64,000 nt of DNA from Candidatus Moraniibacteriota bacterium (GCA_016182385.1 JACPGV010000002.1:189190-253189); one strand, 5' to 3'; shown: positions 8,334 through 51,376, counted from the stretch's first letter. Program-made: numbers and translations. The notes: a model not told the origin generated them from the letters alone.

Positions 8334-8423
8334 GGAGGAGTGGCCGAGTGGTTGAAGGCAACAGTCTTGAAAACTGTCGTACCCGAAAGGGTATCGTGAG
8401 TTCGAATCTCACCTCCTCCGCCA
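8334..8423 (+). tRNA. tRNA-Ser (anticodon TGA), type II with long variable arm and encoded CCA.
   Basis: GGAGGAG acceptor, GCC/GGC D-stem, anticodon loop CTTGAAA, variable arm CGTACCCGAAAGGGTATC, T-arm GTGAG-TTCGAAT-CTCAC, CTCCTCC-G-CCA. Confidence 0.85.
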
Positions 8424-8496
8424 AGTTTTACATTCAGCGAAATTGAAAGATGTTGCCTCGGCGCAAAGCGCCTCGGCATGGTATTTTTCCGCAATT

Positions 8497-8660
8497 TTAA
8501 AGGCATTTTTGAAATCCAAAAACAAAGTGCGGTCGGCAATGCGGAAGTTCGAACCAATCTTTTTGAGAAAATCCCGAAAGGATTCGGGAATTTTTGGCGG
8601 GAACGCGTTTGTGTCGGCGCGAAGCTCGGTGAGGGAATGGTGTTTTAACCACAGTGTCTT
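8497..8660 (+). repeat. Dispersed repeat family R1, copy 1. It contains imperfect palindromes and T-arm-like GTTCGAAC motifs, and its 3' end carries the 33-bp islet direct repeat.
   Basis: 8524-8620 aligns with the reverse complement of 15158-15290. Core GGATTCGGGAATTtTTGGCGGGAAcGCgTTTGTGTCGGCGC is about 90% identical. ORFs 8409..8672(-) and 8443..8700(+) lie within the repeat. Confidence 0.6.
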
Positions 8661-8735
8661 AACCACAGACAATGGACAGAACGCAATTTTTAGTGTATAA
8701 TTTATTAGATTTTCAACTGTTAAAATCTAATAAAA

Positions 8736-9347
8736 ATGTCATTTGAAGGTTATAAAAAAGATTCCAGGGACATACATTTGAATCCTAAAGAAGGCAAAGA
8801 ACAGGCCGGGACTCTGGAATCATTGTTGGAAAAGTACAAGGACCAAAGAGTATTGGTTCTTGCGCCACCGAGTGTTGGAAAAAGTACCATCTTGCAACAT
8901 ATCAAAGATGGCGTTGACTTAGATGTAGTATTTGATGATATGCCAGAAGAGTTTAAAAGACACGTTTTACATCATGAGTGGCCATTCATGTTTGTTGATG
9001 GTGATAGGAAGGCCATAAAATACACTGAAAAGGAATTTGACCCAAATAATATTGAGCACCAAGATTATTTAAGAGAGACGACTGAATTGCTGACGGATTA
9101 TGTTCAAAGCAAGATGAATATCGAAGCGGGACATCCAGGCTTTGGAAGTACTCTTGTAGATTCTGATGTGGTGATATATTTAAAAATTTCTGAAGAGGAG
9201 CTTGAAAAAAGGATTGAGTCTCGTAATAAGAATACTCACAGACTCGTACAGATTGAAAGAGTTAAGGCGATAAAGAAAAATTTAGAAGTAGATTTAGTTA
9301 GGTTTAAATCTGAAGGTGGAGTAGTGGAAGAGATAACTATTGATTAA
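8736..9347 (+). CDS. P-loop NTPase / putative nucleotide or polynucleotide kinase (203 aa).
   Basis: Walker A-like LAPPSVGKST. AT-rich gene inside the putative islet. Immediately followed by a HAD phosphatase gene. Confidence 0.55.
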   Translation: MSFEGYKKDSRDIHLNPKEGKEQAGTLESLLEKYKDQRVLVLAPPSVGKSTILQHIKDGVDLDVVFDDMPEEFKRHVLHHEWPFMFVDGDRKAIKYTEKEFDPNNIEHQDYLRETTELLTDYVQSKMNIEAGHPGFGSTLVDSDVVIYLKISEEELEKRIESRNKNTHRLVQIERVKAIKKNLEVDLVRFKSEGGVVEEITID

Positions 9348-9909
9348 CCATATAACTGAGAAAAATATGAAAATGAAGAAAAAAATAGTTTTCTTAGACG
9401 GAGATGGAACGCTTTGGTATCCAAGTGCTACAAAGCGAACACAAAAACCTCACTGGATTTATCATGACCCCGAAACTAAAGATAACTATCTTGAACATTT
9501 AGAATTAACCCCAAAGACTAAGGAAACTCTAGAATATTTGAATAAGCAAGGTTTACTCCTTGTAGTTCTTTCAGCGAATCCCTATGCAGAAGATATTGCT
9601 ATTAAAGAAATCAAAGAAAGACTAGATCATTTTCAGTTGATTAGTCTTTTCTATACGTATAGATCTTCAGAGGGCAGCGATCCAAATGGTAAAGCATCAA
9701 TTATTCTGGAAATATTATCATCTTTAGGACTCGAGAAGCAGGACGCGCTGATGGTCGGAGATAGTTATTTTTATGATTACCTCGCAGCTAAAGATATTGG
9801 CGTGGATGCTCTCTTTGTAGAGAATAGTGTTTCAAAAATGCCAGATGAAATCCCTCAAGATTTACAGTCAATTAAAGAGATTCACGAATTAGTTGATATA
9901 CTTACCTGA
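9340..9909 (+). CDS. HAD-superfamily phosphatase (DxDGT class, PNK 3'-phosphatase-like).
   Basis: Motif I FLDGDGTLW, motif IV MVGDSYFYDY, intervening motif II/III-like S/K. 189 aa. Confidence 0.7.
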   Translation: MINHITEKNMKMKKKIVFLDGDGTLWYPSATKRTQKPHWIYHDPETKDNYLEHLELTPKTKETLEYLNKQGLLLVVLSANPYAEDIAIKEIKERLDHFQLISLFYTYRSSEGSDPNGKASIILEILSSLGLEKQDALMVGDSYFYDYLAAKDIGVDALFVENSVSKMPDEIPQDLQSIKEIHELVDILT

Positions 9910-9918
9910 TTTCTTCTT

Positions 9919-12900
9919 ATGGATGTGGATGAGAAATCTGTAAGAACAAAAATCTCGAAGTTCAATCAAGAAAGCAACGTGAGCGAATTACTCAGTTTAC
10001 TGAGTGTCACTGATTCTGACTTGGAGAAAATAATATCCTTTATCAATAAATTTATTGATAAAGGATATTTGAAATCGTTTACATTTCTTCCTCTTAAAGT
10101 TACCGATGAATATTTAGTATTTATTAATTCCTCAAATGAGGTTGAGGTGATTGATACGGATACTGTAAGCTTGAGAAAGGCGCTGAATCATATTAAGGCA
10201 TACGATAATAGCAATTTTCAATCTGAAACTGCTAGTTTAGTTTTGCGAAGCGTCCTTCTTGCCGTATCAAAATCAGAGCTCAAGTCTTATGATGTATTTA
10301 CCAGATTTAATACGGAGGTCTCGGATAAGAATACACTGAGACAACTATTGAAGGATGAAAATAATTGGATCGCTGAAAGAAGAGAAATTCAGAAAAATCT
10401 TACAGATTATTTTTATACAAGTGTAGAATCTCTATCACGAAAGATTGCTCATTCAAAACGGATAGAGAAAGGTCTCTACTGTGTTAGGGGACCTATAGCC
10501 TCAGGAAAGTCCTCATTTATTAAGAGCTTGTTAGATCAAAATATAAAGGACATTGAAGGTTTTGATGGTGTACTAAATACTGACGCTGTAAAAAGAAGGT
10601 TTGTATTAAACGCTTCAAATTACACAGGACAGATGCTTTCTGGTTATGTATTTCATGAGGAAGCATCCATTATCGGTGAAAAACTACTTGAAAAAGTTAA
10701 AGAGGCTAATTTTATTTACGTCCTCGATAGGAGAATGCAATCGGTCGATGACCTTGATGAACTTCTGCTTGATGCAGAACGAAGAAACTTGCCAGTTAAT
10801 ATTTTTGATCTAAAAGTTGATTTTATAACATCCGCATTGAGAGTTCTAGAGAGAACAGGTGTGTACCCAAGTGATCCTACACCTGATTTTTTATCACTAT
10901 ACAAAAGTTATAAAAATATAGAGGATTGCAGATTGATTTTCTTAGAGAAATCTTTAGCTTCAAAATTTGTAAAAAATTATTCCACAGTATCCGTTAATAC
11001 TAATGGTGACCCAGTAATCCTCAATCTTAAAAAGAACTATATAGTTAATAAGCAGAACTTAGTTCATGAATCAGAAGCTCGGTATATGTCGAGTATTGAA
11101 AGTTTGAAAAACCTCATTCTTTCAAATGATAAGACGCTTCAAATTACTCTAGACGAGCATTCGCGAAAGGGGCACATTCCTCGGTTATCAAGAAATGAGT
11201 ATCAAGAGGGTCTATTGCGAAATATTAAATGTACAAGTAGGACATTTGATGGAGAGTTAGATGTTTCGGCATCTAAAGATAAGCATAAGATTCTCAACAC
11301 ATCTATTTCAAAGAATGATCTGATAAAGATCACGAAAAATAATATAACAAAAGCTTTTGATTTTGTATATGATAATAAAAACATACCTATATTATCGCCA
11401 CAAGTGCTTAAAGACTTTATTGATCAAATTGCAAGAATTGTAAATCAAGAGATTATAAATGATGAAAAGCTAATAGTAAGAAGCGGAAGTAATTCCCATA
11501 AGTATTTTTATGTAGATACAAAATACGTAGAAAAGTTTTATAAATCATTTGTAAGTCAGTTGTACTATAAGCTTAGTAATCCAGCAGTTAACCCCATAGA
11601 TTTAGCGGCGTGGATTGAATGGAATATAGATTTTTGTGGACATATTTTTAGTGATGGTTGCGGGAGAATTTCAAAAATTTTGAGTACGTGGCTACTGACG
11701 AGATATAATGTTACTTTGCCAAATTATGAAAATGGACAAGATGGATTTGCAACTATTCGAGAATCATACAGAAAGAGATTCGCTATTAAATCGATTATAA
11801 ATCTTCAAATTCCCACTAATACAAAAAGCTTTTACGCTTTCGCAACCTACTATAAGAGATTGTTTGAGCCTAAGAAGACTTATAAGATTCTTGCTTCAGG
11901 CGGGTTAATTTATAATTCAGCGGGTCAGTTCTTAATACTTCAGACTAGTAAGGGTAAGGACTGCGGGAAGTGGGTTGTTCCTGGAGGTAAGCTGGATATC
12001 AATGAAGCTCCAATGGAAGCGTTTGTTCGGGAGGTCTTTGAGGAAACTGGACTTGAGATCAACAATATTCGTTTATTAGGAGTACGTGATTACACAGCAA
12101 AAAGTGGAAACCATTATCATTTTTATGACTATACCTCTTCTGTAATTGATGAAAAAAGAATAAAGATTAACGAGGAGTCCCTCGCTTTTAAGTGGATTAC
12201 GAAAGATCAGATATTAAACTTTACTTTTACGGATTCAATCACAAATTTTATTCATAAATATTTTATTTTTGAATATCTAGATATTTATCAAAAAGTAGTT
12301 AAGATTCCAGATCATAACTTCGACACACCTCATTTAATCGACCATACGATGACAACTTCGCTAGAGAATTATATCAAAAATAAACTACCGATAGATTTGA
12401 TTGATAGTAATCTAAGGATGATAGATAGTTTTGAAATACATGGTATATATCCAGATCTCAATATTTTGAATGAACTGAATCTAGACTTTACTATCACCGA
12501 GGTGCTTCATTCGAGTAAGTTAAAAAAAGACAATAGCAATAGCTTGAGACCGATGTTTTTATTAGGTGAGAGAAATTCAAAGAAGATTTTGATCTGTTGT
12601 GTAACTCCAGGGAGAGACTTACTCATACACTATGCTTCTATGATTAAGTATCATTTAAGAAATTTTCAGATTTCGATAAATGTCTATGCTTATCCTTTGG
12701 CTGAAAAAGATATCGATAAATGGACTGGTCTAGACGAAAAAATGATTATCAAGAATGATATTGTTATTCTTGGCTACAGCACTTTTTTTAAAGATCACTT
12801 TGAAAAAGATTCTGATTTTTCGGTATTAAGTACGTACCAAAACAAGTTTTATTCAGCTACTAGATTTATTTCAAAAAACGGAAAGGTAATAAATTGTCTG

Positions 12901-13455
12901 GAGGCAAACTATGGTCATTGGGGTGATATTAGTGATTTTCTAGCGCAGAAAGTATGTCAGTTGAAAGCACAGGAGATTTTGCATGTAGGAAAAGTGGGTA
13001 CCTTAAAATCTGTAAGTGAAGTATATAAAAGAATATACATACCAAAGTCATTTGTTATAGGTAGAAGAAATGAAATTATGAGCTTAGGCTTAAAGTTAAG
13101 TAATTCTATGGAGTATATAAAAGAGCATTCTTCTTTAGCTCATATTTCTGTAACTACAACAATGGAAGAAACCTTTACTCAGCGTGAACATTTTTCTAAG
13201 CAAAAAGTTCATACGATAGATATCGAATCATCAAAAATTGCTCGTGCAGTTGCTCTATATAATATTACTAACAAGACTAAGATAAAATTTGGAGCAATAC
13301 ATTTCTCTTCAGATTATTTGAAAAAATTAGAGGAGTCAGAGCAGAATGTAGGTATAGATTTATCAACCAATAGAGAGGATTTGAAATATAGAAAGCAAAA
13401 TATACTTAATGAAATCTTTTATATTATTAAGAGGCATATCATTGATAATGGGTAG
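9919..13455 (+). CDS. Multidomain 1178-aa protein: N-terminal unknown domain, zeta-toxin/PNK-like P-loop kinase, Fic/Doc-like domain, Nudix hydrolase domain, and a C-terminal ~380-aa domain possibly nucleosidase-like.
   Basis: Walker A GPIASGKSS (~aa 181). Fic-like HIFSDGCGRISK (~aa 573), close to the Fic core consensus HxFx(D/E)GNGRxxR. Nudix box GGKLDINEAPMEAFVREVFEETGLE (~aa 690). C-terminal ...ILHVGKVGTL... weakly PNP/MTAN-like. About 33% GC. Confidence 0.7.
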   Translation: MDVDEKSVRTKISKFNQESNVSELLSLLSVTDSDLEKIISFINKFIDKGYLKSFTFLPLKVTDEYLVFINSSNEVEVIDTDTVSLRKALNHIKAYDNSNFQSETASLVLRSVLLAVSKSELKSYDVFTRFNTEVSDKNTLRQLLKDENNWIAERREIQKNLTDYFYTSVESLSRKIAHSKRIEKGLYCVRGPIASGKSSFIKSLLDQNIKDIEGFDGVLNTDAVKRRFVLNASNYTGQMLSGYVFHEEASIIGEKLLEKVKEANFIYVLDRRMQSVDDLDELLLDAERRNLPVNIFDLKVDFITSALRVLERTGVYPSDPTPDFLSLYKSYKNIEDCRLIFLEKSLASKFVKNYSTVSVNTNGDPVILNLKKNYIVNKQNLVHESEARYMSSIESLKNLILSNDKTLQITLDEHSRKGHIPRLSRNEYQEGLLRNIKCTSRTFDGELDVSASKDKHKILNTSISKNDLIKITKNNITKAFDFVYDNKNIPILSPQVLKDFIDQIARIVNQEIINDEKLIVRSGSNSHKYFYVDTKYVEKFYKSFVSQLYYKLSNPAVNPIDLAAWIEWNIDFCGHIFSDGCGRISKILSTWLLTRYNVTLPNYENGQDGFATIRESYRKRFAIKSIINLQIPTNTKSFYAFATYYKRLFEPKKTYKILASGGLIYNSAGQFLILQTSKGKDCGKWVVPGGKLDINEAPMEAFVREVFEETGLEINNIRLLGVRDYTAKSGNHYHFYDYTSSVIDEKRIKINEESLAFKWITKDQILNFTFTDSITNFIHKYFIFEYLDIYQKVVKIPDHNFDTPHLIDHTMTTSLENYIKNKLPIDLIDSNLRMIDSFEIHGIYPDLNILNELNLDFTITEVLHSSKLKKDNSNSLRPMFLLGERNSKKILICCVTPGRDLLIHYASMIKYHLRNFQISINVYAYPLAEKDIDKWTGLDEKMIIKNDIVILGYSTFFKDHFEKDSDFSVLSTYQNKFYSATRFISKNGKVINCLEANYGHWGDISDFLAQKVCQLKAQEILHVGKVGTLKSVSEVYKRIYIPKSFVIGRRNEIMSLGLKLSNSMEYIKEHSSLAHISVTTTMEETFTQREHFSKQKVHTIDIESSKIARAVALYNITNKTKIKFGAIHFSSDYLKKLEESEQNVGIDLSTNREDLKYRKQNILNEIFYIIKRHIIDNG

Positions 13456-13477
13456 TTTCTAAGCCTCGCTTTTATGC

Positions 13478-13500
13478 AGATTTTTGAGACACTAGCGTGT
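13478..13500 (+). terminator. Possible hairpin terminator after the 1178-aa ORF.
   Basis: AGACAC-tagc-GTGTCT stem-loop followed by TATTTCCTT. A second hairpin ATGAGACA...TGTCTCAT lies at 13515-13542. Confidence 0.3.
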
Positions 13501-13675
13501 CTTATTTCCTTAATATGAGACATAGCCTGTATTGTGTCTCATTTGTCTCAAAAGCCTGACCCGGACACCTCAATTTGCTATACTCCAAGTACCTCCAAGA
13601 AACCCCTCAACAGCCCTATACTTCAAAGTTCTAGACCGATGTAGCCCGCAATTTTTCGAAAAGGGTTTCAGAACC

Positions 13676-13720
13676 AAAAATATGGTCGGCGTGAAGCTCG
13701 GTGAGGGAATGTGGTTTGAG
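13676..13720 (+). repeat. Partial R1 repeat copy carrying the second 33-bp direct repeat, the putative right boundary of the islet.
   Basis: 13685-13717 GTCGGCGtGAAGCTCGGTGAGGGAATGtgGTTT versus 8613-8646 GTCGGCGcGAAGCTCGGTGAGGGAATGgtGTTTT. Confidence 0.55.
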
Positions 13721-15026: not shown

Positions 15027-15117
15027 GGAAAGGTGGCCGAGCTGGCTGAAGGCACCACACTGCTAACGTGGCAGGGGATAAAACCCCTCGAGGGTTCGAA
15101 TCCCTCCCTTTCCGCCA
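15027..15117 (+). tRNA. tRNA-Ser (anticodon GCT), type II with encoded CCA.
   Basis: GGAAAGG acceptor, GCC/GGC D-stem, anticodon stem CCACA/CGTGG with loop CTGCTAA, long variable arm AGGGGATAAAACCCCTC, T-arm GAGGG-TTCGAAT-CCCTC, CCTTTCC-G-CCA. Confidence 0.8.
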
Positions 15118-15300
15118 AAATTGAAAATCGGAATCGGAAGCCGAAATGGGGTCGGCGCGAAGCGCCGACACAAAAGCATTCCCGCCAAGAATTCCCGAAT
15201 CCAAAAGGTTTTTCCACGCTCCGCGTGGCTCAAAAAAGACGGTTCGATCCTTAATTTGAAAGTTCGAACCGACTTTTTTGAACAAATGAAGTTTTGCTTC
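15112..15300 (-). repeat. tRNA-Ser(GCT) 3'-flank repeat (att-like, 15112-15149) followed by an inverted copy of repeat family R1 (15158-15290).
   Basis: 15112-15149 recurs at 19472-19509 (33/38 identical). 15158-15290 is the reverse complement of 8524-8620. Internal imperfect palindrome AAAAAGTCGGTTCGAAC...GATCGAACCGTCTTTTTT. Confidence 0.6.
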
Positions 15301-15587
15301 ATTTGTTCCCTCGTTTGCCAATTCCATATTGTATTTCAAAAACTTTTCCGTAAGTTCGAACCGATTATTCGCTTTTTGCTCAAAAGCCGATAATTTCTCT
15401 TTGAGAAGCTGTTTTTCGTTCATTAACTTATTTTTCATATCTCGATATTCTTCAAGCGACAAGGCGTTTTCGAGATAAGCGCTATGATGTAAGCTCCTAT
15501 CTGGACAAGGAGGGCTTTGAGAAAATGAATAGTAAGCTGAAGTAGTCTGAAATTGGAGAGAAGTCCTCTTTATGCTAAAATGGAACT

Positions 15588-17426
15588 ATGTTTGAAAAAC
15601 ACCCCCTCCACATCAAAAACCCAGAACTGCAGAAATCTGCCGATGTTCAGCATGCCGTTGTTCGTGACCAGCGCCACACCGGCGAGAAAATTCCAAATGA
15701 TCCTAAAGATCGTATTGAGGCATATACTGACCGATTGGAAAATATCTTTCTCAACCCTGATAGCCGAGTACGAGAGCGCAATATTGACCTTCTTCGTCCC
15801 AAGATTTACGACAGCCTCATCATCAAGCGAGGGAATTTTCCCGATTCCTACTTTGAACTCCAAAAAAGAGTGGCCAGAGAACAGGGTCACGGTGACATTG
15901 AAATTTCTCAAGAGATGCGAGAGCAGATGATTGATACGGCTATCGCTGATCAAAGGCACTCTCTTGATGCTTGGATTGACTACCTGTCATCCGAAGATGC
16001 TGTCTATCCAGCCTGGTTTAAGTACTACGCGTGGAATCAAATTACCAAGCTTTCCCAGTTTGATAAAGAGCGCGGCGAATTCAAGAAACGCACCGAAAGC
16101 ACGGTCGCTCCTTTTCCAGATATCTACCGCGAACCACTAGCGCAAATGGCCGACCTGTACGAGCGAGTCAAGCAAGATAATAAGGATCCAGAAGCTAGAG
16201 CTGAATTTGATAAAAAATTCCCTAATCTCTACGCTGAACTCATTGTTAAATCCTTAGAGGCCGGAGTGGGGGGTGGGGAAACCATAGAGGGGGCCTGGGT
16301 AAAGTTTGAACAAGGGGAGGAAGGCGCCGCGGAGAAACTTTTTCAGTCGCTTGATGGCCGAGGGACGGGCTGGTGTACCGCTGGGTATTCAACCGCCCAA
16401 ACCCAAATTGAATCCGGAGATTTCTATGTCTATTACACGAATGATAAAGACGGAAACCCAATACAACCAAGACTCGCCATTCGCATGAATGGTGATACTC
16501 AAATCGGAGAAGTAAGAGGAGTGCTCCCGCAACAAAATGTAGAGCCTTTGATGCAAGAAGTATTAGAGGAAAAACTCCAAGCTTTTGGGAAAGAGGCTGA
16601 TGCGTATCATAAGAGGAGTAGCGATATGAAAATGCTGACCGTTCTGGAAAACAAAAAAAAGCAGGGAATACCTTTTGCTAAAGAAGATCTCACTTTCCTA
16701 TACGAAATCAATTCCACCATTGAAGGCTTTGGCTATCAGGAAGATCCACGCATCGCTGAATTACGGGCTGATCGCAATACCGAAAGAGACATGTTAGTAA
16801 TCTTTGATTGTACCCAGGCAGATATTGCCAGAACCCCAAGTGAAATTCGGCCTACAACCAAAGCCTATGTGGGTCAATTAGAGCCAGGCATCTTCCAAAA
16901 ACTCCCAGCTACTCTAGAACACGTCTATACTGCTTTCCCAGAAGGAAAAGTACGAAGGATAGAATCCAAAGTGGGAGGCAAATCTGCTGGTACTCTTCAA
17001 GAAGAATTGGAAGCTGCTCAAATCAATATTGGGGGCTATGCTGAGAGTATGCTCAAAAACAAAAAGGAATTTATTGCTACTCCAGAATTAGAAGAGATGA
17101 CCCTGATTCGTCTTACGGTAGCTGACCTTGGTTTTAAGTCCTCTGCTACTACTGATCAAATTTACAAACGAGCTGAAGAATTAGGACTTGAACTCTGTCC
17201 AAGCGATGTCGGTCCCACGCTCCGTTTACAATACCAAAATCAACCTCTTGGAGAATGGCTGTATATAGGAATGAAACAAATTGCTGACTCTGACGGCAAT
17301 CCCGGCGTTTTCATGCTGGCGCGCGACGGTGGCGGTTTGTGGTTGGACAGCAGTTGGGCGAGGCCTAGCAGCGGGTGGAATCCGGACGGCGGGTTCGTGT
17401 TCCGTCTCCGCAAATCTGAATCTTAG
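15588..17426 (+). CDS. DGR target (variable) protein, 612 aa. C-terminal ~45 aa is encoded by the VR (C-type-lectin/FGE-like ligand-binding fold inferred). N-terminal ~560 aa of unknown function.
   Basis: 3' end 17283-17410 is an adenine-mismatched copy of the TR. C-terminal motif ...GWNPDGGFVFRLR is typical of DGR variable proteins. Confidence 0.8.
   Translation: MFEKHPLHIKNPELQKSADVQHAVVRDQRHTGEKIPNDPKDRIEAYTDRLENIFLNPDSRVRERNIDLLRPKIYDSLIIKRGNFPDSYFELQKRVAREQGHGDIEISQEMREQMIDTAIADQRHSLDAWIDYLSSEDAVYPAWFKYYAWNQITKLSQFDKERGEFKKRTESTVAPFPDIYREPLAQMADLYERVKQDNKDPEARAEFDKKFPNLYAELIVKSLEAGVGGGETIEGAWVKFEQGEEGAAEKLFQSLDGRGTGWCTAGYSTAQTQIESGDFYVYYTNDKDGNPIQPRLAIRMNGDTQIGEVRGVLPQQNVEPLMQEVLEEKLQAFGKEADAYHKRSSDMKMLTVLENKKKQGIPFAKEDLTFLYEINSTIEGFGYQEDPRIAELRADRNTERDMLVIFDCTQADIARTPSEIRPTTKAYVGQLEPGIFQKLPATLEHVYTAFPEGKVRRIESKVGGKSAGTLQEELEAAQINIGGYAESMLKNKKEFIATPELEEMTLIRLTVADLGFKSSATTDQIYKRAEELGLELCPSDVGPTLRLQYQNQPLGEWLYIGMKQIADSDGNPGVFMLARDGGGLWLDSSWARPSSGWNPDGGFVFRLRKSES
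17283..17410 (+). repeat. DGR variable repeat (VR).
   Basis: 128 bp, about 83% identical to the TR. All ~22 mismatches fall at TR adenines. Shared 3' GC-rich IMH-like end CGTGTTCCGTCTCCG. Confidence 0.85.
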
Positions 17427-17769
17427 AAACTTTGTTTCTTTGTCTTAATTTTTCTTTTGACCCTTGGACTCTTTGATACTTTGGACTTTAGTCTTTTAGC
17501 GGCGTAGCCGCTTGGCGCGATTTTTTTGCTATACTGATTGCAAGCTGGTTACATTGAACGGTTACGGCTTTTCGAGACCAGCCCGGCTCATGTGGATTGA
17601 GAGCGTGGACGGCTACGGTTTTCCACGGAGGATACGCATGCAGTCAACAAAAAAGAAACACTTGGTGCGACACACTGGCTGATTTTCGATCAGAGTTAAA
17701 ATACAGCACGACCTCTGGCATTTCATGCGCTTAGGTCGGCAGTGATCTAGATGGCGTGCCGCACAAAAA

Positions 17770-17897
17770 GCTGACTCTGACGGCAATCCCAACGTTTTCA
17801 AGCTGGAACGCAACGATGACGGTTTGTGGTTGAACAACAATTGGGCGAAGCCTAACAACGAGTGGAATCCGAACAACAAGTTCGTGTTCCGTCTCCG
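17770..17897 (+). repeat. DGR template repeat (TR).
   Basis: Contains 10 AAC (Asn) codons in the target frame. The corresponding VR codons are GGC/GAC/AGC/CGC etc. Confidence 0.85.
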
Positions 17898-17917
17898 AAA
17901 CTGCTTTCTTTCCGCAG

Positions 17918-18241
17918 CTATGTGTTGCGGTTTTTCTTTTCAGGGTTGTCGAGATTCTTCTTCCAGCCACCGAACATGCGGCCAATCTCTTCAAGTTTTG
18001 AGGAAACATTCTCACAGTGGGCGTTTGAAATGAGCTTGCCTTCCCAGGCAACTGAAACGAGAAACTTCAGCGTATCAAGAAGGAGGATACATTCAGAAAT
18101 CTTTTCAGCCTTTTTCTCTTTTTCGGTAAAGTAGGCAGCGTAGGAAAGTTCGAGTAAATCAAGAAACCTATTTTCAATGCGAGAGCCTATCGTATATCTC
18201 GCCCCTTTAGAAATATGCGGAACAATATTCACCCAAATCAA
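17918..18241 (-). CDS. Avd-like accessory variability determinant (four-helix-bundle, 23S rRNA IVS protein family). Antisense to TR and RT.
   Basis: 107 aa. C-terminal ...KFLVSVAWEGKLISNAHCENVSSKLEEIGRMFGGWKKNL resembles the IVS/Avd consensus (...EIGKML.GLIK.L). Basic. Confidence 0.5.
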   Translation of the reverse strand: MIWVNIVPHISKGARYTIGSRIENRFLDLLELSYAAYFTEKEKKAEKISECILLLDTLKFLVSVAWEGKLISNAHCENVSSKLEEIGRMFGGWKKNLDNPEKKNRNT

Positions 18242-18267
18242 ATAGCCCTCTTTGATACGAGCGAGGA

Positions 18268-19326
18268 TTGTGGCCTTCGTATTTCCGAGCGAAGCTCGGG
18301 GGGGGGGGTGAAAACAGGTGCAGTCATATCTACCATGATATCATTTCTGTGGATAACTTGCTCTCGGCCTGGCGCGAGTTTCTCAAAGATAAACGCCGTC
18401 GTAAGGATATTGAACGGTTTGCGCTTCACCTGACCGATAATGTCCTTTCGCTTCACAAGGATCTTACCGACAAAACCTATAAGCATGGCTCGTATCGAGC
18501 TTTTCGGATTAACGACCCGAAGCCACGAGATATTCATAAGGCATCGGTTCGAGACCGACTTCTGCACCATGCGATCTATCGGGTCTTGTATCCCTACTTC
18601 GATCCCAAGTTTATTTTCGACTCCTATTCCTGCCGCCGTGCTAAAGGCACACACCGGGCTATCAATCGCTTTCGGGACTATGCTCGCAAGGTTTCACAAA
18701 ATCATACACGCACCGCTTGGGTTCTCAAGTGTGACATTAGGAAGTTTTTTGCTAACATCGATCACAAAATTCTGGAAGATATCCTGAGGCACCGCATCGG
18801 AGATGGAGAGGTAGTATCGCTTCTGGGCGAAGTAGTAGGAAGCTTTCATACGAAAGACAATCCCGCTGTCGGGCTGCCCCTTGGCAACCTTACGAGCCAG
18901 CTTCTGGTGAACATCTATATGAATGAGTTCGATCACTTTGTGAAGCGGGAATTGAAAGCCGCCTACTACATTAGGTATGCAGATGACTTCGTAATCTTGC
19001 ATGAAGACAAGGAGTATTTGGAAAAGCTTTTGCCCAAGATAGCAGCGTATCTGGCAGCCCGGCTTAGGCTGTCGCTCCACCCGAACAAGGTATTCATAAA
19101 GACGATTGCCTCGGGCGTTGATTTCTTAGGCTGGGTGCATTTTCCGTATCATCGGGTACCAAGAACCTCCACCAAAAAAAGAATGTTCAGAAACCTCAAT
19201 CAGAAGCAGACGGAAGCCACCGTGGCCTCATATCTCGGCCTCCTGAGCCATGGGAACACCTATGGCCTAGCTGAGAAGGTAAAGAGAAGTCTTCCCGAAA
19301 ATTCGAGCGAAAAGGCTACCTTTTGA
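18268..19326 (+). CDS. DGR reverse transcriptase.
   Basis: RT domains with YADD (IRYADDFVIL) and DGR-specific motif LPLGNLTSQ, which replaces QGxxxSP. About 350 aa, no maturase/endonuclease domain. Start uncertain: TTG at 18268 or GTG at 18349. Confidence 0.85.
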   Translation: MWPSYFRAKLGGGGENRCSHIYHDIISVDNLLSAWREFLKDKRRRKDIERFALHLTDNVLSLHKDLTDKTYKHGSYRAFRINDPKPRDIHKASVRDRLLHHAIYRVLYPYFDPKFIFDSYSCRRAKGTHRAINRFRDYARKVSQNHTRTAWVLKCDIRKFFANIDHKILEDILRHRIGDGEVVSLLGEVVGSFHTKDNPAVGLPLGNLTSQLLVNIYMNEFDHFVKRELKAAYYIRYADDFVILHEDKEYLEKLLPKIAAYLAARLRLSLHPNKVFIKTIASGVDFLGWVHFPYHRVPRTSTKKRMFRNLNQKQTEATVASYLGLLSHGNTYGLAEKVKRSLPENSSEKATF

Positions 19327-19471
19327 GACAGTCCCAAAAACGCCCATAACCGTCCCATTAGTCTCATTTGCCAAAAAGCCAAGCCTAGACTCAGGTACCT
19401 CAGTAAAACCCGAGAAACCATGCTAAAATATCCCTTAATAGCCCTATCCCTGGGTACTTAACTCAGGTGGC

Positions 19472-19509
19472 CCGCCAAAATTGGAAATCGGAATCAGAAG
19501 TCGAGATGA
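19472..19509 (+). repeat. Distal direct repeat of the tRNA-Ser(GCT) 3' end plus flank (attR-like).
   Basis: 33/38 identity with 15112-15149, including CCGCCA (acceptor end, discriminator, CCA). Confidence 0.55.
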
Positions 19510-48582: not shown

Positions 48583-49404
48583 TCAATCTAACGGACTCTT
48601 GATTCTTTTTAGATTCGGATGAGTCACTTTTGTGTAGAGTTGTGTGGTTCGTATATTGCTGTGTCCGAGGAGCTCTTGCACATAGCGTACGTCGACGCCG
48701 TTTTCGAGCAGGTGAGTGGCGAAACTATGTCGTAGAGAATGGAAAGTCGCGTCTTTTTTGATCTCTGCGGCCTCGAGCGCTTTTTCAAAGACGATCTGTG
48801 CTGTTCGTTCAGTCAATTTCCCACCCCGAGCGCTTTCAAAAATATAGTCATCTTTTTCACGAAGTACTATAATTTCAGCGAGGGCCAACTTCAATTTTTC
48901 AGGGAAAACAGTGATTCTATCCTTCTTTCCTTTGGCGTCTTTGATATGGATGGTGAGTTCTTCCAGATTGATATCTTTGATTTTGAGATTGATTGCTTCG
49001 CTCACTCGTAGACCGGCACCATAAGACAGAGAAATAATCAGTTGATGTTTTTTATTATTTATAACATCGATAATTTTTTCAATTTCTGTTCGTGACAGCA
49101 CCACTGGCAACTTGTTGGATGTTTTAGCGAATTTCAAATCAACAAGGACACTACTTTTGAAAATTTCACGATAGAAATATTTGATGGCATTGAGGTAGAG
49201 ATTGATAGTTTGAGGGGATTGTCCGCGCGCTTGTTTTTCCAGCAGATATGTTTTGATGCGCGATATATCCGGATTTCTCTTGACATCCTTGATATATCGA
49301 AAATAATCAGACAGGCAAACCAGATAACCTTTCACGGTTTTTTGGCTGTAGTTTTTGAGCTTCAGTTCGCCTTCTATCCGCTGTAAAAGTTCTTGAAGAT
49401 TCAT
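48583..49404 (-). CDS. Tyrosine site-specific recombinase XerC/XerD family.
   Basis: C-terminal HSLRHSFATHLLENGVDVRYVQELLGH...LYT with catalytic R-H-R-Y residues. 273 aa. Confidence 0.85.
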   Translation of the reverse strand: MNLQELLQRIEGELKLKNYSQKTVKGYLVCLSDYFRYIKDVKRNPDISRIKTYLLEKQARGQSPQTINLYLNAIKYFYREIFKSSVLVDLKFAKTSNKLPVVLSRTEIEKIIDVINNKKHQLIISLSYGAGLRVSEAINLKIKDINLEELTIHIKDAKGKKDRITVFPEKLKLALAEIIVLREKDDYIFESARGGKLTERTAQIVFEKALEAAEIKKDATFHSLRHSFATHLLENGVDVRYVQELLGHSNIRTTQLYTKVTHPNLKRIKSPLD

Positions 49405-49504
49405 AAATAGAGTGCTAACATGCGAGTGTACTCACGAAGATAAGTGTAGTATATGTTCGCACAATAGACAAGATAATGATGTTTATAAGTAAACATTACG
49501 CATA

Positions 49505-49600
49505 AAACCGAGTTCTGCGACATCGCTTCGCTCGTCGCAGAATGGGCGGCGGCTTCGCCTCGTTCCGCTCGTCGCTTCGCGACATCGCAGAACTCGGTAT
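49505..49600. repeat. GC-rich nested palindromic element upstream of xerC.
   Basis: CCGAGTTCTGCG...CGCAGAACTCGG outer arms enclose rotated units GCGACATCGC/CTCGTCGC around TTCG. A further GTATATCC...GGATATAC inverted repeat follows at 49601-49650. Confidence 0.4.
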
Positions 49601-49848
49601 ATCCAAAATGTCTGTCGCCGAGCAAGGCTCGACTCCACCCACTTCGGATATACGCAATTCAAAAAATATTTTTCTAACGGAGAATAAGGAATGATAGGCT
49701 TTCAAAGGAGAATAAATTTGATTTTTTCTTTATTTAAAGAGGGGGATAATAATGTGTTTTCTCCACTCCGTTCCGAAAACGATTTATTTATAAATCAATT
49801 TGAATAGTATAAAATAAATGAGCTTTATTAAATTAAATTTGGTGAAAT

Positions 49849-50649
49849 ATGTATAAAAGTATTTTTATAGTGAAAAAGATGGACTGTCCATCTGAAAAAA
49901 GTCTGATTGAAATAAGACTTGGTTCAATTCAAACAATTAAAAAACTTGATTTTGACCTTGATAAAAGAAAACTCACTGTTTTTCATTTAGAAAAAGATGA
50001 AAAAATTGGAAAGTATTTAGATGAGCTGAAATTAGATTCTAAACTTGAGAAAACTATTAAACTTCAAGATAAAAATAATGAATTTGTAGACGATTCTCAA
50101 AGTCAGAAAAAACTTCTAAAAACCGTTCTTTATATTAATTTCGGATTTTTTCTCTTTGAAATAGTTGCTGGGATTATCGCAAATTCGATGGGGCTTGTTG
50201 CAGATAGCTTGGACATGCTTTCAGACTCAATAGTTTATTCAATTAGCCTTTTTGCTGTCGGTGGGAGCATTCTTCTTAAAAAGAAAGTTACAAAACTCGC
50301 GGGATCTTTTCAAATGCTTCTTGCAGTAATTGGATTTATTGAAGTATTAAGGAGATTTTTGGGATTTGAAAAAATGCCTGATTTTATCTCAATGATTGGT
50401 GTAGCAAGTCTTGCGTTTATTGCAAATATGTATTGCTTATATTTATTTAATAAATCAAAAAGTGAAGACGCTCATATGAAAGCAAGCTGGATTTTTACAT
50501 CAAACGATTTAATAGTAAACATAGGAGTCATAATTTCAGGATTTTTAGTTTATCTTTTTAACTCAAGTAAACCAGACTTAATAATTGGAGGTATTGTATT
50601 TATTGTAGTGATTAATGGTGCAATAAAGATTTTAAAATTATCCAAATAA
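49849..50649 (+). CDS. Cation diffusion facilitator (CDF) family metal efflux transporter with an N-terminal ~75-aa HMA-like extension.
   Basis: CDF signature VADSLDMLSDS in TM2, several TM helices, 266 aa. Located in an AT-rich (~30% GC) segment. Confidence 0.55.
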   Translation: MYKSIFIVKKMDCPSEKSLIEIRLGSIQTIKKLDFDLDKRKLTVFHLEKDEKIGKYLDELKLDSKLEKTIKLQDKNNEFVDDSQSQKKLLKTVLYINFGFFLFEIVAGIIANSMGLVADSLDMLSDSIVYSISLFAVGGSILLKKKVTKLAGSFQMLLAVIGFIEVLRRFLGFEKMPDFISMIGVASLAFIANMYCLYLFNKSKSEDAHMKASWIFTSNDLIVNIGVIISGFLVYLFNSSKPDLIIGGIVFIVVINGAIKILKLSK

Positions 50650-50946
50650 GGAGTTTTGAAAAATGAAATTCACCCCTAACCCCTCTTTCATTTTTCAAAA
50701 CGGAAAAAATCAAATTTATAATTAATGAGGAAAGCCTATCTGATAAATGAAGACGAAAAATATTTTTTGAACTCACTCCGCTTCGCTCCGTGCCACGCTG
50801 CGCTCTCCTCCTTTCAGTCGTCGGGGCGTATAACAGCGGATATGAGGTTCGCCCCTCGGCTCGGGGCTCACCCAAATTGCTCCCTACGGTCGCAACTTCT
50901 CATATCCGCAAACGTTATATGAAATAAATTTTTTTACTACAACCAT

Positions 50947-51228
50947 ATGGAATTCAAAGAAAAACCGTTTGAGCAAAAATCAACATTTGAAGCAGATAAA
51001 GACGGCTTCGTTAAATTTGGCGATGTATCAAGGAAGCTTCTTAATAAACAGTGCCAATATGGCGTTACTTACGCCTTTGGTGATGAAAGCTGTGACTGCC
51101 CAAATTTAGGAGAAGGTCTTCGTATTACGGGAAATCCAGGTAATTATCATGATGTTAAAATTCACAAAGATGATATAGATGAATTTGTCAGGAGATACGA
51201 AGCCTATAAGAACGAACAAAAATTTTAA
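50947..51228 (+). CDS. Hypothetical small protein (93 aa) with a CDCP motif.
   Basis: ORF in the AT-rich segment. No recognised motif. Confidence 0.35.
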   Translation: MEFKEKPFEQKSTFEADKDGFVKFGDVSRKLLNKQCQYGVTYAFGDESCDCPNLGEGLRITGNPGNYHDVKIHKDDIDEFVRRYEAYKNEQKF

Positions 51229-51376
51229 AATTATTTTTTACATCCGATAACACGGCACATGCGGTTAAAAAATTTTGCTCAATTATACGATAGCGGAATG
51301 CAAAATTTTTTAACCCAAATTTCGCTTTTATTATGATAAAATTTTTCTACCCTAACAGTGTACGGCATATCTGAAT

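Follow-up and report, generated by a model that had tools for sequence, protein, structure and literature searches.

How did a block of three unusually AT-rich genes come to lie directly behind a serine tRNA gene, and where does it begin and end? We address this question for a 64,000-nucleotide stretch of the genome of a Candidatus Moraniibacteriota bacterium (GCA_016182385.1, JACPGV010000002.1:189190-253189; hereafter the window, with positions counted from its first letter). An earlier sequence-only reading had described the block, with its genes for a small P-loop kinase, a HAD phosphatase and a 1178-aa multidomain protein, as a cargo island acquired horizontally, bounded by a pair of 33-bp direct repeats and devoid of any integrase. 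We find that the region from 8424 to about 13650 is indeed a horizontally acquired gene island of an ordinary kind, and that the three genes, judged by their distribution among genomes, form a mobile cassette. The island is probably a decayed integrative element of a family that is common in Patescibacteria and inserts at tRNA 3' ends by means of a large serine recombinase, and the 33-mers would then be a scar within its debris.

A foreign gene island behind tRNA-Ser(tga)

The left edge of the island is set by the tRNA. tRNA-Ser(tga), called by ARAGORN at 8334-8423 on the plus strand, is both the integration target and the left island boundary: homology to the tRNA-Ser(tga) of relatives stops at 8421-8424, and from 8424 onward, immediately 3' of the tRNA and on the same strand, the sequence is not common to relatives. 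The left 33-bp repeat begins 190 bp past the tRNA, as the sequence-only reading had noted. The AT-rich composition it described is equally clear when profiled. Positions 8646-13650 have a GC content of 0.336 (33.6%), compared with 0.435 ± 0.021 (43.5%; minimum 0.390) in the other 5-kb windows, giving z = -4.6, and in tetranucleotide usage they differ from the remainder of the window by a distance of 0.45, twice the highest value of any other 5-kb window (0.164 ± 0.024, maximum 0.227). At third codon positions the GC content of the three cargo genes is 0.28-0.33, against 0.43-0.56 for the neighbouring genes. The genes themselves, examined as open reading frames (ORFs) and with Pfam, are those that had been named: a 203-aa P-loop kinase-like protein, a HAD phosphatase and the 1178-aa multidomain protein. 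An identical protein at NCBI is assigned to a metagenome-assembled genome of Candidatus Moranbacteria.

Evidence for mobility comes from other genomes. Full-length relatives of the 1178-aa protein fall into about 29 clusters with 45-76% identity, and in all nine independent genomic contexts that were fetched, every one from Patescibacteria, the three genes are present in unchanged order. Their neighbourhoods are unrelated. The cassette lies beside the ribosomal-protein/SecY cluster in L004 (upstream tRNA Arg(tct)/Ser(gct)), after pyruvate kinase in L009 (upstream tRNA Ser(gga)), downstream of a tRNA Gln in L100, in a defence-like patch (ParB-methylase, Schlafen/AlbA_2) in L092, adjoining a transposase in L094, and among relaxase- and coupling-protein-like genes in L101 and L102, the latter also with a 558-aa Resolvase-domain protein nearby. 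In L007/L008 an intact 519-aa large serine recombinase (Resolvase + Recombinase + Zn_ribbon_recom) overlaps tRNA-Asp, and the cassette follows 3.4 kb further on. A same-strand tRNA is found within 5 kb upstream in five of the nine contexts (the window with its Ser(tga), L004, L007, L009 and L100), and in L092, L094, L101 and L102 the cassette is away from any tRNA. Relative to the closest copy, that of L004 (76%), nucleotide homology runs from 8665 to 13649: it begins near the promoter of the operon and stops after a non-coding tail of about 200 nt. No flanking repeats comparable to the 33-mers were found around the other cassette copies, and no relatives of the cassette were found in viral contigs.

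A simpler view would be that nothing was transferred: the three genes would be native and AT-rich through their own codon and amino-acid usage, and the repeats irrelevant local debris. Part of the compositional skew could indeed be intrinsic, as the GC content of the cassette is lower than that of its flanks in all five contexts profiled. However, an intrinsic skew does not account for neighbourhoods that are unrelated and often contain mobile-element genes, for a position that differs between syntenic relatives, most of which are without the cassette, or for a tetranucleotide distance double the maximum elsewhere. The recombinase stub and the shared terminal module described below likewise favour transfer, and we regard native genes as a very improbable explanation.

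The same conclusion follows the locus through related genomes. A search anchored on RecG returned nearest genomes with 66-70% RecG identity, in which the backbone is kept: a 509-aa protein, RecG, an aminotransferase, two tRNA-Arg genes, a 168-aa protein and tRNA-Ser(tga). Past this tRNA, the genes of L018 and L013 are housekeeping genes, among them one for an ABC transporter, followed by that of an RRM protein, and conservation between the window and these two resumes only at ~13843, upstream of the RRM protein gene. An empty site with a single copy of the 33-mer, as the sequence-only reading had envisaged, was not found in related genomes, the nearest of which carry other genes after tRNA-Ser(tga). 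Nor was the case that would have spoken against that reading, the same three genes at the same locus without repeats, since no relative has the cassette after tRNA-Ser(tga). One relative has it elsewhere; in the L013 genome it lies about 14 kb further on, 2.5 kb from a MatE-ComF-ClpB-PilM block that is also found in the window. Several relatives carry partial copies of the 3' half of tRNA-Ser a few dozen bases behind the full tRNA (L017 7198-7249, L032 7303-7354, L019 3590-3619, L022 ~446-490 and L004 6132-6149). These are scars of earlier insertions or excisions, and tRNA-Ser(tga) is thus a recurrent insertion site. As a separate observation, the orientation of tRNA-Ser(tga) relative to RecG in L013, L019, L021, L022 and L038 differs from that in the window, L012 and L016-L018, and in L013 the same holds for the 168-aa gene, which implies that inversions have occurred around this tRNA.

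The ends of the island and the 33-bp repeats

On the left, the space between the tRNA and the cargo is filled with pieces of recombinase genes. The first, R1 (8424-8593, minus strand), is the 3'-terminal stub, about 57 codons (..PE.FRDFLKKIGSNFRIADRTLFLDFKNAFKIAEKYHAEALCAEATSFNFAECKTW), of a large serine recombinase gene, whose tail abuts the 3' end of the tRNA. It matches a hidden Markov model (HMM) of the recombinase C-terminus at 8493-8585 (E = 7.7e-5), is 87.5% identical to L103 9405-9230 over 176 nt and 89% identical to L027 over 133 nt, and has 106 protein homologues with up to 96% identity. It is a stub of the same kind as the remnant beside tRNA-Ser(gct) described below, but of another recombinase subtype. 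Among the relatives of that other remnant, the ORFs run into the antisense of the adjoining tRNA (..FWRRGRDSNPR), so that the 3' tail of the gene abuts the tRNA 3' end. This stub is all that remains of the integrase beside tRNA-Ser(tga); the intact arrangement is seen in L007.

Upstream of R1 the natural sequence in its relatives is ..AEKYAQQENPERIRDFLKKIGSNF, and the window diverges from this at ~8594. What follows is R2 (8594-8620, plus strand), a small fragment that stems from the other recombinase type (sense ..GGNAFVSA), is foreign to the natural R1 sequence and lies in the opposite orientation to R1, with a palindrome at the joint (8572-8589). R2 accounts for 27 nt of a 41-nt inverted repeat, 93% identical, between 8580-8620 and 15162-15202. 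The left 33-bp repeat, DR1 (8613-8645, plus strand), consists of a hairpin arm, GTCGGCGC, followed by GAAGC and a further 20 nt, and a filler of 22 nt (TAACCACAGTGTCTTAACCACA, 8646-8667) leads from it to the conserved cassette, where homology to L004 begins at 8665.

Large serine recombinases, the phage-type serine integrases, comprise Resolvase, Recombinase and Zn_ribbon_recom domains and a coiled coil, and the remnants are homologous to the C-terminal part with its Zn-ribbon and coiled coil. No N-terminal Resolvase catalytic domain was detected in the recombinase remnants of the window by Pfam or HMM searches; they are pseudogene stubs, and nothing catalytic survives in the window. The claim that no integrase or transposase is present stands as far as intact ORFs between the repeats are concerned, but recombinase gene remnants lie at or beside both of them.

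The extreme C-terminus of the recombinase (KKxGSNF..ALRAD..tail) is conserved across the phylum to an unusually high degree at the DNA level. Near the 3' end of the gene, within the ..SALRAD.. codons, lies a perfect 8-bp hairpin, GTCGGCGC-GAA-GCGCCGAC, at 15151-15169 in the window and found phylum-wide. To our knowledge no such feature has been described for the large serine recombinase family. Read on the plus strand of the window, the natural 3' end is tail, hairpin and then the GGNAFV codons. Hairpin arms also occur at 8613-8620 and 13685-13692 and a variant at 8457-8479, and old remnants tend to break off at or near the hairpin. In public databases, hundreds of 'hypothetical' or 'partial' proteins of 50-200 aa from many Patescibacteria classes are recombinase 3' stubs of this kind with 60-96% identity. 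Their reading frames continue in one of three ways: as antisense of a tRNA (..RRGRDSNPR), as the terminal module (..WRASSV*) or as a further recurrent sequence (..RCVLNEVRMYFELNPDD / ..RYSLYKIRTFFESNPDEE).

On the right, the island ends with a conserved terminal module (13456-13650, plus strand) of GAGACA/TGTCTC terminator hairpins, including a terminator-like hairpin at 13485-13504, and then about 100 nt ending in ..CAAAGTTCTAGACCGATGTAGCCCGCA. Homology to other cassette copies ends at ..GACCGATGNNGCCCGC, which puts the real right boundary near 13647-13650. The module aligns with L004 (13575-13751), L009 (13576-13746), L092 (13556-13735), L019 (6337-6430) and L103 (9394-9600, reverse complement), and with the right end of a second island in the window. 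In L019 it closes a methyltransferase-bearing, recombinase-less island at tRNA-Ser(tga), with 84% identity over 64 nt, and in L103 a protease-bearing island at tRNA-Ser(gct), where the whole of about 200 nt including the GAGACA/TGTCTC hairpins is present. Taken over the islands, a module of about 200 nt (two GAGACA/TGTCTC hairpins, about 100 conserved nt, end CAAAGTTCTAGACCGATGNNGCCCG) closes islands with at least four different cargos. An Rfam search for a tRNA-like or known RNA in this 3' non-coding module gave nothing meaningful.

Immediately past the module comes sequence of a different origin. R3 (13651-13697, minus strand) comes from an older recombinase remnant, of which it retains the tail (..LHADHIFGSETLFEKLR) and the first arm of the hairpin, its 13-aa tail being identical to the tails of the proteins P0031, P0035 and P0066, and it belongs to the ancestral flank of tRNA-Ser(tga). 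Specifically, 13646-13697 reads CCCGCA, then the tail of the recombinase, HIFGSETLFEKLR, and then the hairpin arm with GAAGC. It matches L022 493-544 with 92% identity, a segment that starts 65 nt past the tRNA-Ser(tga) of L022, a locus without the cassette. Beyond the shared stretch L022 reads ..GGGTATGGTGT and the window repeats read GGGAATGGTGT. Because the same stretch follows tRNA-Ser(tga) where there is no cassette, the right tail and 33-mer are pre-existing flank, a truncated remnant of a still older recombinase gene. The flank predates the cassette, and the island was accordingly inserted between the tRNA and this old flank.

These boundaries determine how the 33-bp repeats should be read. 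The repeats exist as described, at 8613-8645 and 13685-13717 (DR2, plus strand), with 30 of 33 positions identical; the 27-mer made up of their first 27 bases, GTCGGCGYGAAGCTCGGTGAGGGAATG, occurs exactly twice in the window and never in 100 dinucleotide-preserving shuffles. As bounds of the island they find no support. Cassette homology has its limits at 8665 and 13649, and the right repeat starts 35 bp past the latter, inside the ancestral flank. DR2 is preceded by the recombinase tail in natural continuity, and DR1 is preceded by GGNAFV codons, in natural continuity with the arm but inverted. Both then continue with 20-25 identical bases that are not from a recombinase. Since the junction 'arm-GAAGC-X' is already present in L022, the left repeat must have been copied from the right one or from an ancestor of it, with the 8-bp arm as the joint. 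Around it lies a patchwork of pieces of 20-40 nt that meet at palindromes and microhomologies, which would fit template switching or illegitimate recombination at the time when the recombinase gene was destroyed.

The 33-mer has no matches in 185,579 GTDB species genomes or in IMG/VR, and the five matches in JGI metagenomes all have unrelated flanks with GC contents of 0.48-0.67, hence are due to chance. As it is absent from databases and from the surroundings of other cassette copies, it is not an attachment core of the whole family, and the two copies are probably a private scar duplication and not attachment sites. They are not a duplicated transposon target either, because the recombinase tail is naturally continuous with the repeat; a Pfam scan found no transposase domain, and there are no inverted repeats at 8646.. 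and ..13684. Two other ideas were considered and dropped. Judged by inspection only, the 33-mer has no dyad symmetry and is not dif-like, which led us to set aside a Xer (IMEX) reading, and none of the several explicit recombination and inversion schemes worked through on paper gives the observed order and orientation in one step.

The strongest case for the repeats as true ends is a 5.07-kb integrase-less element (8646-13684 plus one repeat) with the 33-mers as its recombination core, attL and attR, the enzyme being encoded elsewhere and the target being a copy within the recombinase debris. In its favour, the repeats exist, exceed chance expectation by far, have sharp limits and come to within 20-35 bp of where the conserved cassette ends, and a tyrosine recombinase gene is available at 48583-49404 (273 aa, Phage_integrase E = 4e-43, Xer-like in size, adjoining miaA). 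A Logan contig from a sister sample also starts near the right end, at 13662, but this position fits neither 13685 nor 13693. The tail and right repeat are contiguous beside tRNA-Ser(tga) in the cassette-free L022 and are thus older than the cassette, so that the element would have to import a second copy of its host's own flank. An inverted recombinase fragment adjoins the left repeat, an arrangement that simple integration does not produce, and neither the other cassette copies nor any other site carries such repeats. An attachment core is therefore improbable, and we keep to the scar interpretation. The Logan contigs come from the same organism in two sister samples (SRR12113420/21) and are 100% identical to the window; their breaks at 8450, 13662, 15108 and 15166 all lie in tRNA or recombinase-remnant sequence and may reflect repeats or variants, although they do not decide the matter.

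A second island and the mode of insertion

The window contains a second island of the same build at 15027-19508 (plus strand). It begins with tRNA-Ser(gct) (15027-15117, ARAGORN) and continues with a C-terminal recombinase remnant of 115 codons (15118-15462, minus strand), a 612-aa protein without a Pfam match, a 352-aa reverse transcriptase (18268-19326; RVT_1, E = 6e-23), a diverged terminal module (19318-19477) and CCGCCA with an old tail. The 15118-15462 fragment has 248 relatives with 60-95% identity from many Patescibacteria classes, nearly all of them short or 'partial'. The longer ones carry Zn_ribbon_recom (E = 7e-6), and for one homologue, P0005, the alignment with the complete recombinase of L007 covers residues 296-461 of the latter (E = 1e-10). 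Direct repeats of 37 bp at 15112-15148 and 19472-19508, made up of CCGCCA and the recombinase tail, are 89% identical and score above all of 1000 shuffles. Unlike the 33-mers, these are real end repeats of the element family.

The 612-aa protein and the reverse transcriptase could constitute a reverse-transcriptase-based defence system, and the presence of the latter suggests that both tRNA-Ser genes act as hot spots for cargo or defence. In the relative L083, homologues of the two adjoin the 168-aa gene. A 138-nt direct repeat (17276-17413 and 17763-17900, with 83% identity) extends across the 3' end of the 612-aa gene into the spacer behind it. Elsewhere in the window (48583-51300), the tyrosine recombinase gene is followed by a second low-GC stretch (0.33-0.36 at 49-51 kb) that contains a cation-efflux gene.

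From the two islands and their relatives we can propose how the first one arose. L007 is an intact member of the family, with the recombinase gene on the opposite strand, its 3' end abutting or overlapping the tRNA, and the cargo behind it. The serine recombinase would have catalysed insertion with a crossover close to where the tRNA ends in ..CGC(C)A. In the window, the recombinase gene is cut down to its last ~57 codons (8424-8593) and the rest replaced by short copied segments (8594-8667), the left 33-mer among them, while the cargo operon, self-contained with its own promoter and terminators, is intact. The island closes with the terminal module of about 200 nt (13456-13650), and past it comes the pre-insertion tRNA flank, composed of the older recombinase tail (13651-13697) and adjacent DNA holding the right 33-mer. 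The scar would have received a copy of part of this old flank, and the simplest route would be template switching or illegitimate recombination at the arm of 8 bp, GTCGGCGC.

The shared module raises another scheme, in which the cargo together with its terminal module is a recombinase-less cassette that was captured in trans, inserted by a trans-acting or resident large serine recombinase at the junction of tRNA 3' end and recombinase tail, somewhat in the manner of cassette uptake by an integron, with the debris being part of the platform and not of the incoming DNA. The module is conserved across islands with four different cargos, and it is always followed by ..CGC(C)A and a recombinase tail in both islands of the window, in L004 and in L103; public recombinase tails run into either a tRNA or the module (..WRASSV*), and in L103, L019 and L100 no recombinase stub separates the tRNA from the cargo that follows it. 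Both islands of the window, however, have a recombinase stub between tRNA and cargo, as an element with its own recombinase would leave, and L007 shows exactly that layout intact. The cassette copies away from any tRNA in L092, L094, L101 and L102 also speak against capture in trans, and neither a circular form of the cassette nor a trans-acting enzyme was identified. We consider this scheme unlikely, though it deserves to be kept in view, and favour decay of an element that carried its own recombinase.

Several observations weigh against the favoured reading. No clean empty site exists among the RecG-anchored relatives, so that insertion is inferred from architecture and not from a before-and-after pair. 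A search for a displaced tRNA fragment at the right end (13560-13720) found nothing significant, only ..CCCGCA, and the left and right segments of tRNA end plus tail in this island show only marginal similarity, at the 99th percentile of shuffles. Most of the family islands seen (L019, L103, L100, L009 and L004) are missing their own recombinase, as would be expected after decay but just as much under mobilisation in trans. The recombinase of L007, our intact example, belongs to a different subfamily from the window remnants and goes undetected by their HMM. Sharp ends of the 33-mer on both sides are also what a recombination core would be expected to have, and the route by which the left 33-mer was copied is conjecture. 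Even so, a decayed, tRNA-targeting serine-recombinase element with a private scar remains the probable origin of the island.

A bolder proposal would combine the module with the cargo: Patescibacteria may possess an undescribed cassette-capture system in which recombinase-less cargo units closed by the ~200-nt module enter where a tRNA 3' end meets the 3' tail of a large serine recombinase gene, and in which the attachment site of the recombinase overlaps its own coding end (hairpin and tail). The kinase-HAD-(AvrRxo1-kinase/Fic/NUDIX) operon would be one circulating cassette, encoding a new NAD- or nucleotide-directed defence or toxin-immunity system in these reduced, symbiotic bacteria. We offer this as a speculation that is doubtful on present evidence.

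The cargo operon and comparison with known systems

The cargo is organised as a compact operon with its own promoter and terminator hairpin. The promoter, TGGACA-17-TATAAT (8673-8701, plus strand), matches the consensus at 11 of 12 positions and is kept in other cassette copies, the upstream 77 nt being 95% identical to L004. Gene 1 (8736-9347, plus strand), present in all nine cassette copies, encodes the 203-aa P-loop kinase-like protein with matches to Pfam dNK and AAA_18 (E ~ 4e-5) that fall under the curated cutoff. It overlaps by 8 nt with gene 2 (9340-9909, plus strand), which encodes the HAD-family phosphatase (Pfam HAD_2, E = 7e-13; HAD hydrolases in the PDB, E = 6e-8), and after a 9-nt gap follows gene 3 (9919-13455, plus strand), which encodes the 1178-aa protein (NUDIX E = 8e-18, Zeta_toxin E = 2e-4).

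The domain order of the 1178-aa protein was read from a profile of 20 homologues and an AlphaFold model (mean pLDDT 77.9): an N-terminal domain, an AvrRxo1/zeta-toxin-like kinase (~141-401), a Fic-like domain (~404-650), a NUDIX domain (~655-780) and a C-terminal domain (~790-1175). The kinase domain has the P-loop kinase fold with a Walker A motif (K197). The Fic-like domain has the Fic fold, with the motif HIFSDGCGR (H575) where the consensus is HxFx(D/E)GNGRxxR, and the NUDIX domain has the Nudix fold and the Nudix box GX5EX7REUXEEXGU (E708/E709). The C-terminal domain of ~385 residues has no sequence match in Pfam or the PDB, nor do its stand-alone homologues, and when modelled by itself it gives an unusably poor model (pLDDT 47). 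Comparison with E. coli MtnN by hhalign led us to reject a nucleoside phosphorylase or MTA nucleosidase. In an exhaustive search of 1.84 billion representative proteins, the full 1178-aa architecture is rare (3-4 representatives), and the C-terminal domain is common as a stand-alone protein of ~400 aa without a Pfam model, with ~100 such homologues. Fusions of this domain to prenyltransferase-like repeats, to DUF4062 or to an oxidoreductase occur as well.

AvrRxo1 phosphorylates NAD. It is a zeta-family toxin (PMC4938570). Compared with AvrRxo1-ORF1 and the zeta-toxin kinases (PMC4938570; PDB 4z8q), the kinase here is one of five domains, fused to Fic, NUDIX and an unnamed domain, and no Arc1- or epsilon-type antitoxin gene is evident in the operon, where the partners are instead the small kinase and the HAD phosphatase. 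The PADLOC defence models give partial matches at the level of domains only (VakA, E = 6e-6 over 50 aa; PDC-S07 on the NUDIX domain only). With low confidence, we suggest from these domain assignments that the cargo may be a nucleotide- or NAD-directed conflict module, toxin or defence, in which the NUDIX domain, together with the small kinase and the HAD phosphatase, would act on the product so as to modulate or reverse it; a role in nucleotide salvage is possible. As a rare, intact and widely transferred operon, the cargo makes a sensible candidate for a conflict system directed at nucleotides.

Foreign cargo at a tRNA with a dead integrase is a textbook object, and the island poses no mobilisation mystery; what merits further attention is the cargo protein, together with the end module found across the family. 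Patescibacteria, whose genomes are very small and poorly understood, appear to have a common family of tRNA-targeting serine-recombinase elements. With the conserved 3' stubs and the end module of about 200 nt, islands and their cargo can in practice be marked out in these bacteria, and many assembly breaks are explained. The titles and abstract openings of the top-ranked papers from a literature search contain no report of such elements in Patescibacteria.

Comparable arrangements are known elsewhere. Integron gene cassettes are likewise recombinase-less cargo units that have a conserved terminal module resembling a recombination site and accumulate at one locus. The island studied here differs from them in having no IntI-type tyrosine recombinase and no attC or attI, in carrying its own promoter, and in using a tRNA gene as its locus.

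Closer parallels are the genomic islands and integrative elements at tRNA genes of the kind that Islander has mapped (PMC4383910) and the tycheposons of Prochlorococcus, in which repeated insertion at a tRNA pushes older elements inward and leaves fragmented integrases, att scars and integrase-less forms, and a minority of which use large serine recombinases (bioRxiv 10.1101/2020.12.28.424599). Both share with the window island the insertion at a tRNA 3' end, including that of tRNA-Ser(tga), an integrase gene beside the tRNA, of which the window island keeps only the stub, and cargo of atypical composition. In our case a large serine recombinase takes the place of the usual tyrosine integrase, the far-end repeat consists of the last tRNA bases and the recombinase 3' tail and not of a sizeable tRNA fragment, the host belongs to the Patescibacteria, and there are no replication or packaging genes. 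In layout, the tycheposons are the closest match to the window island.

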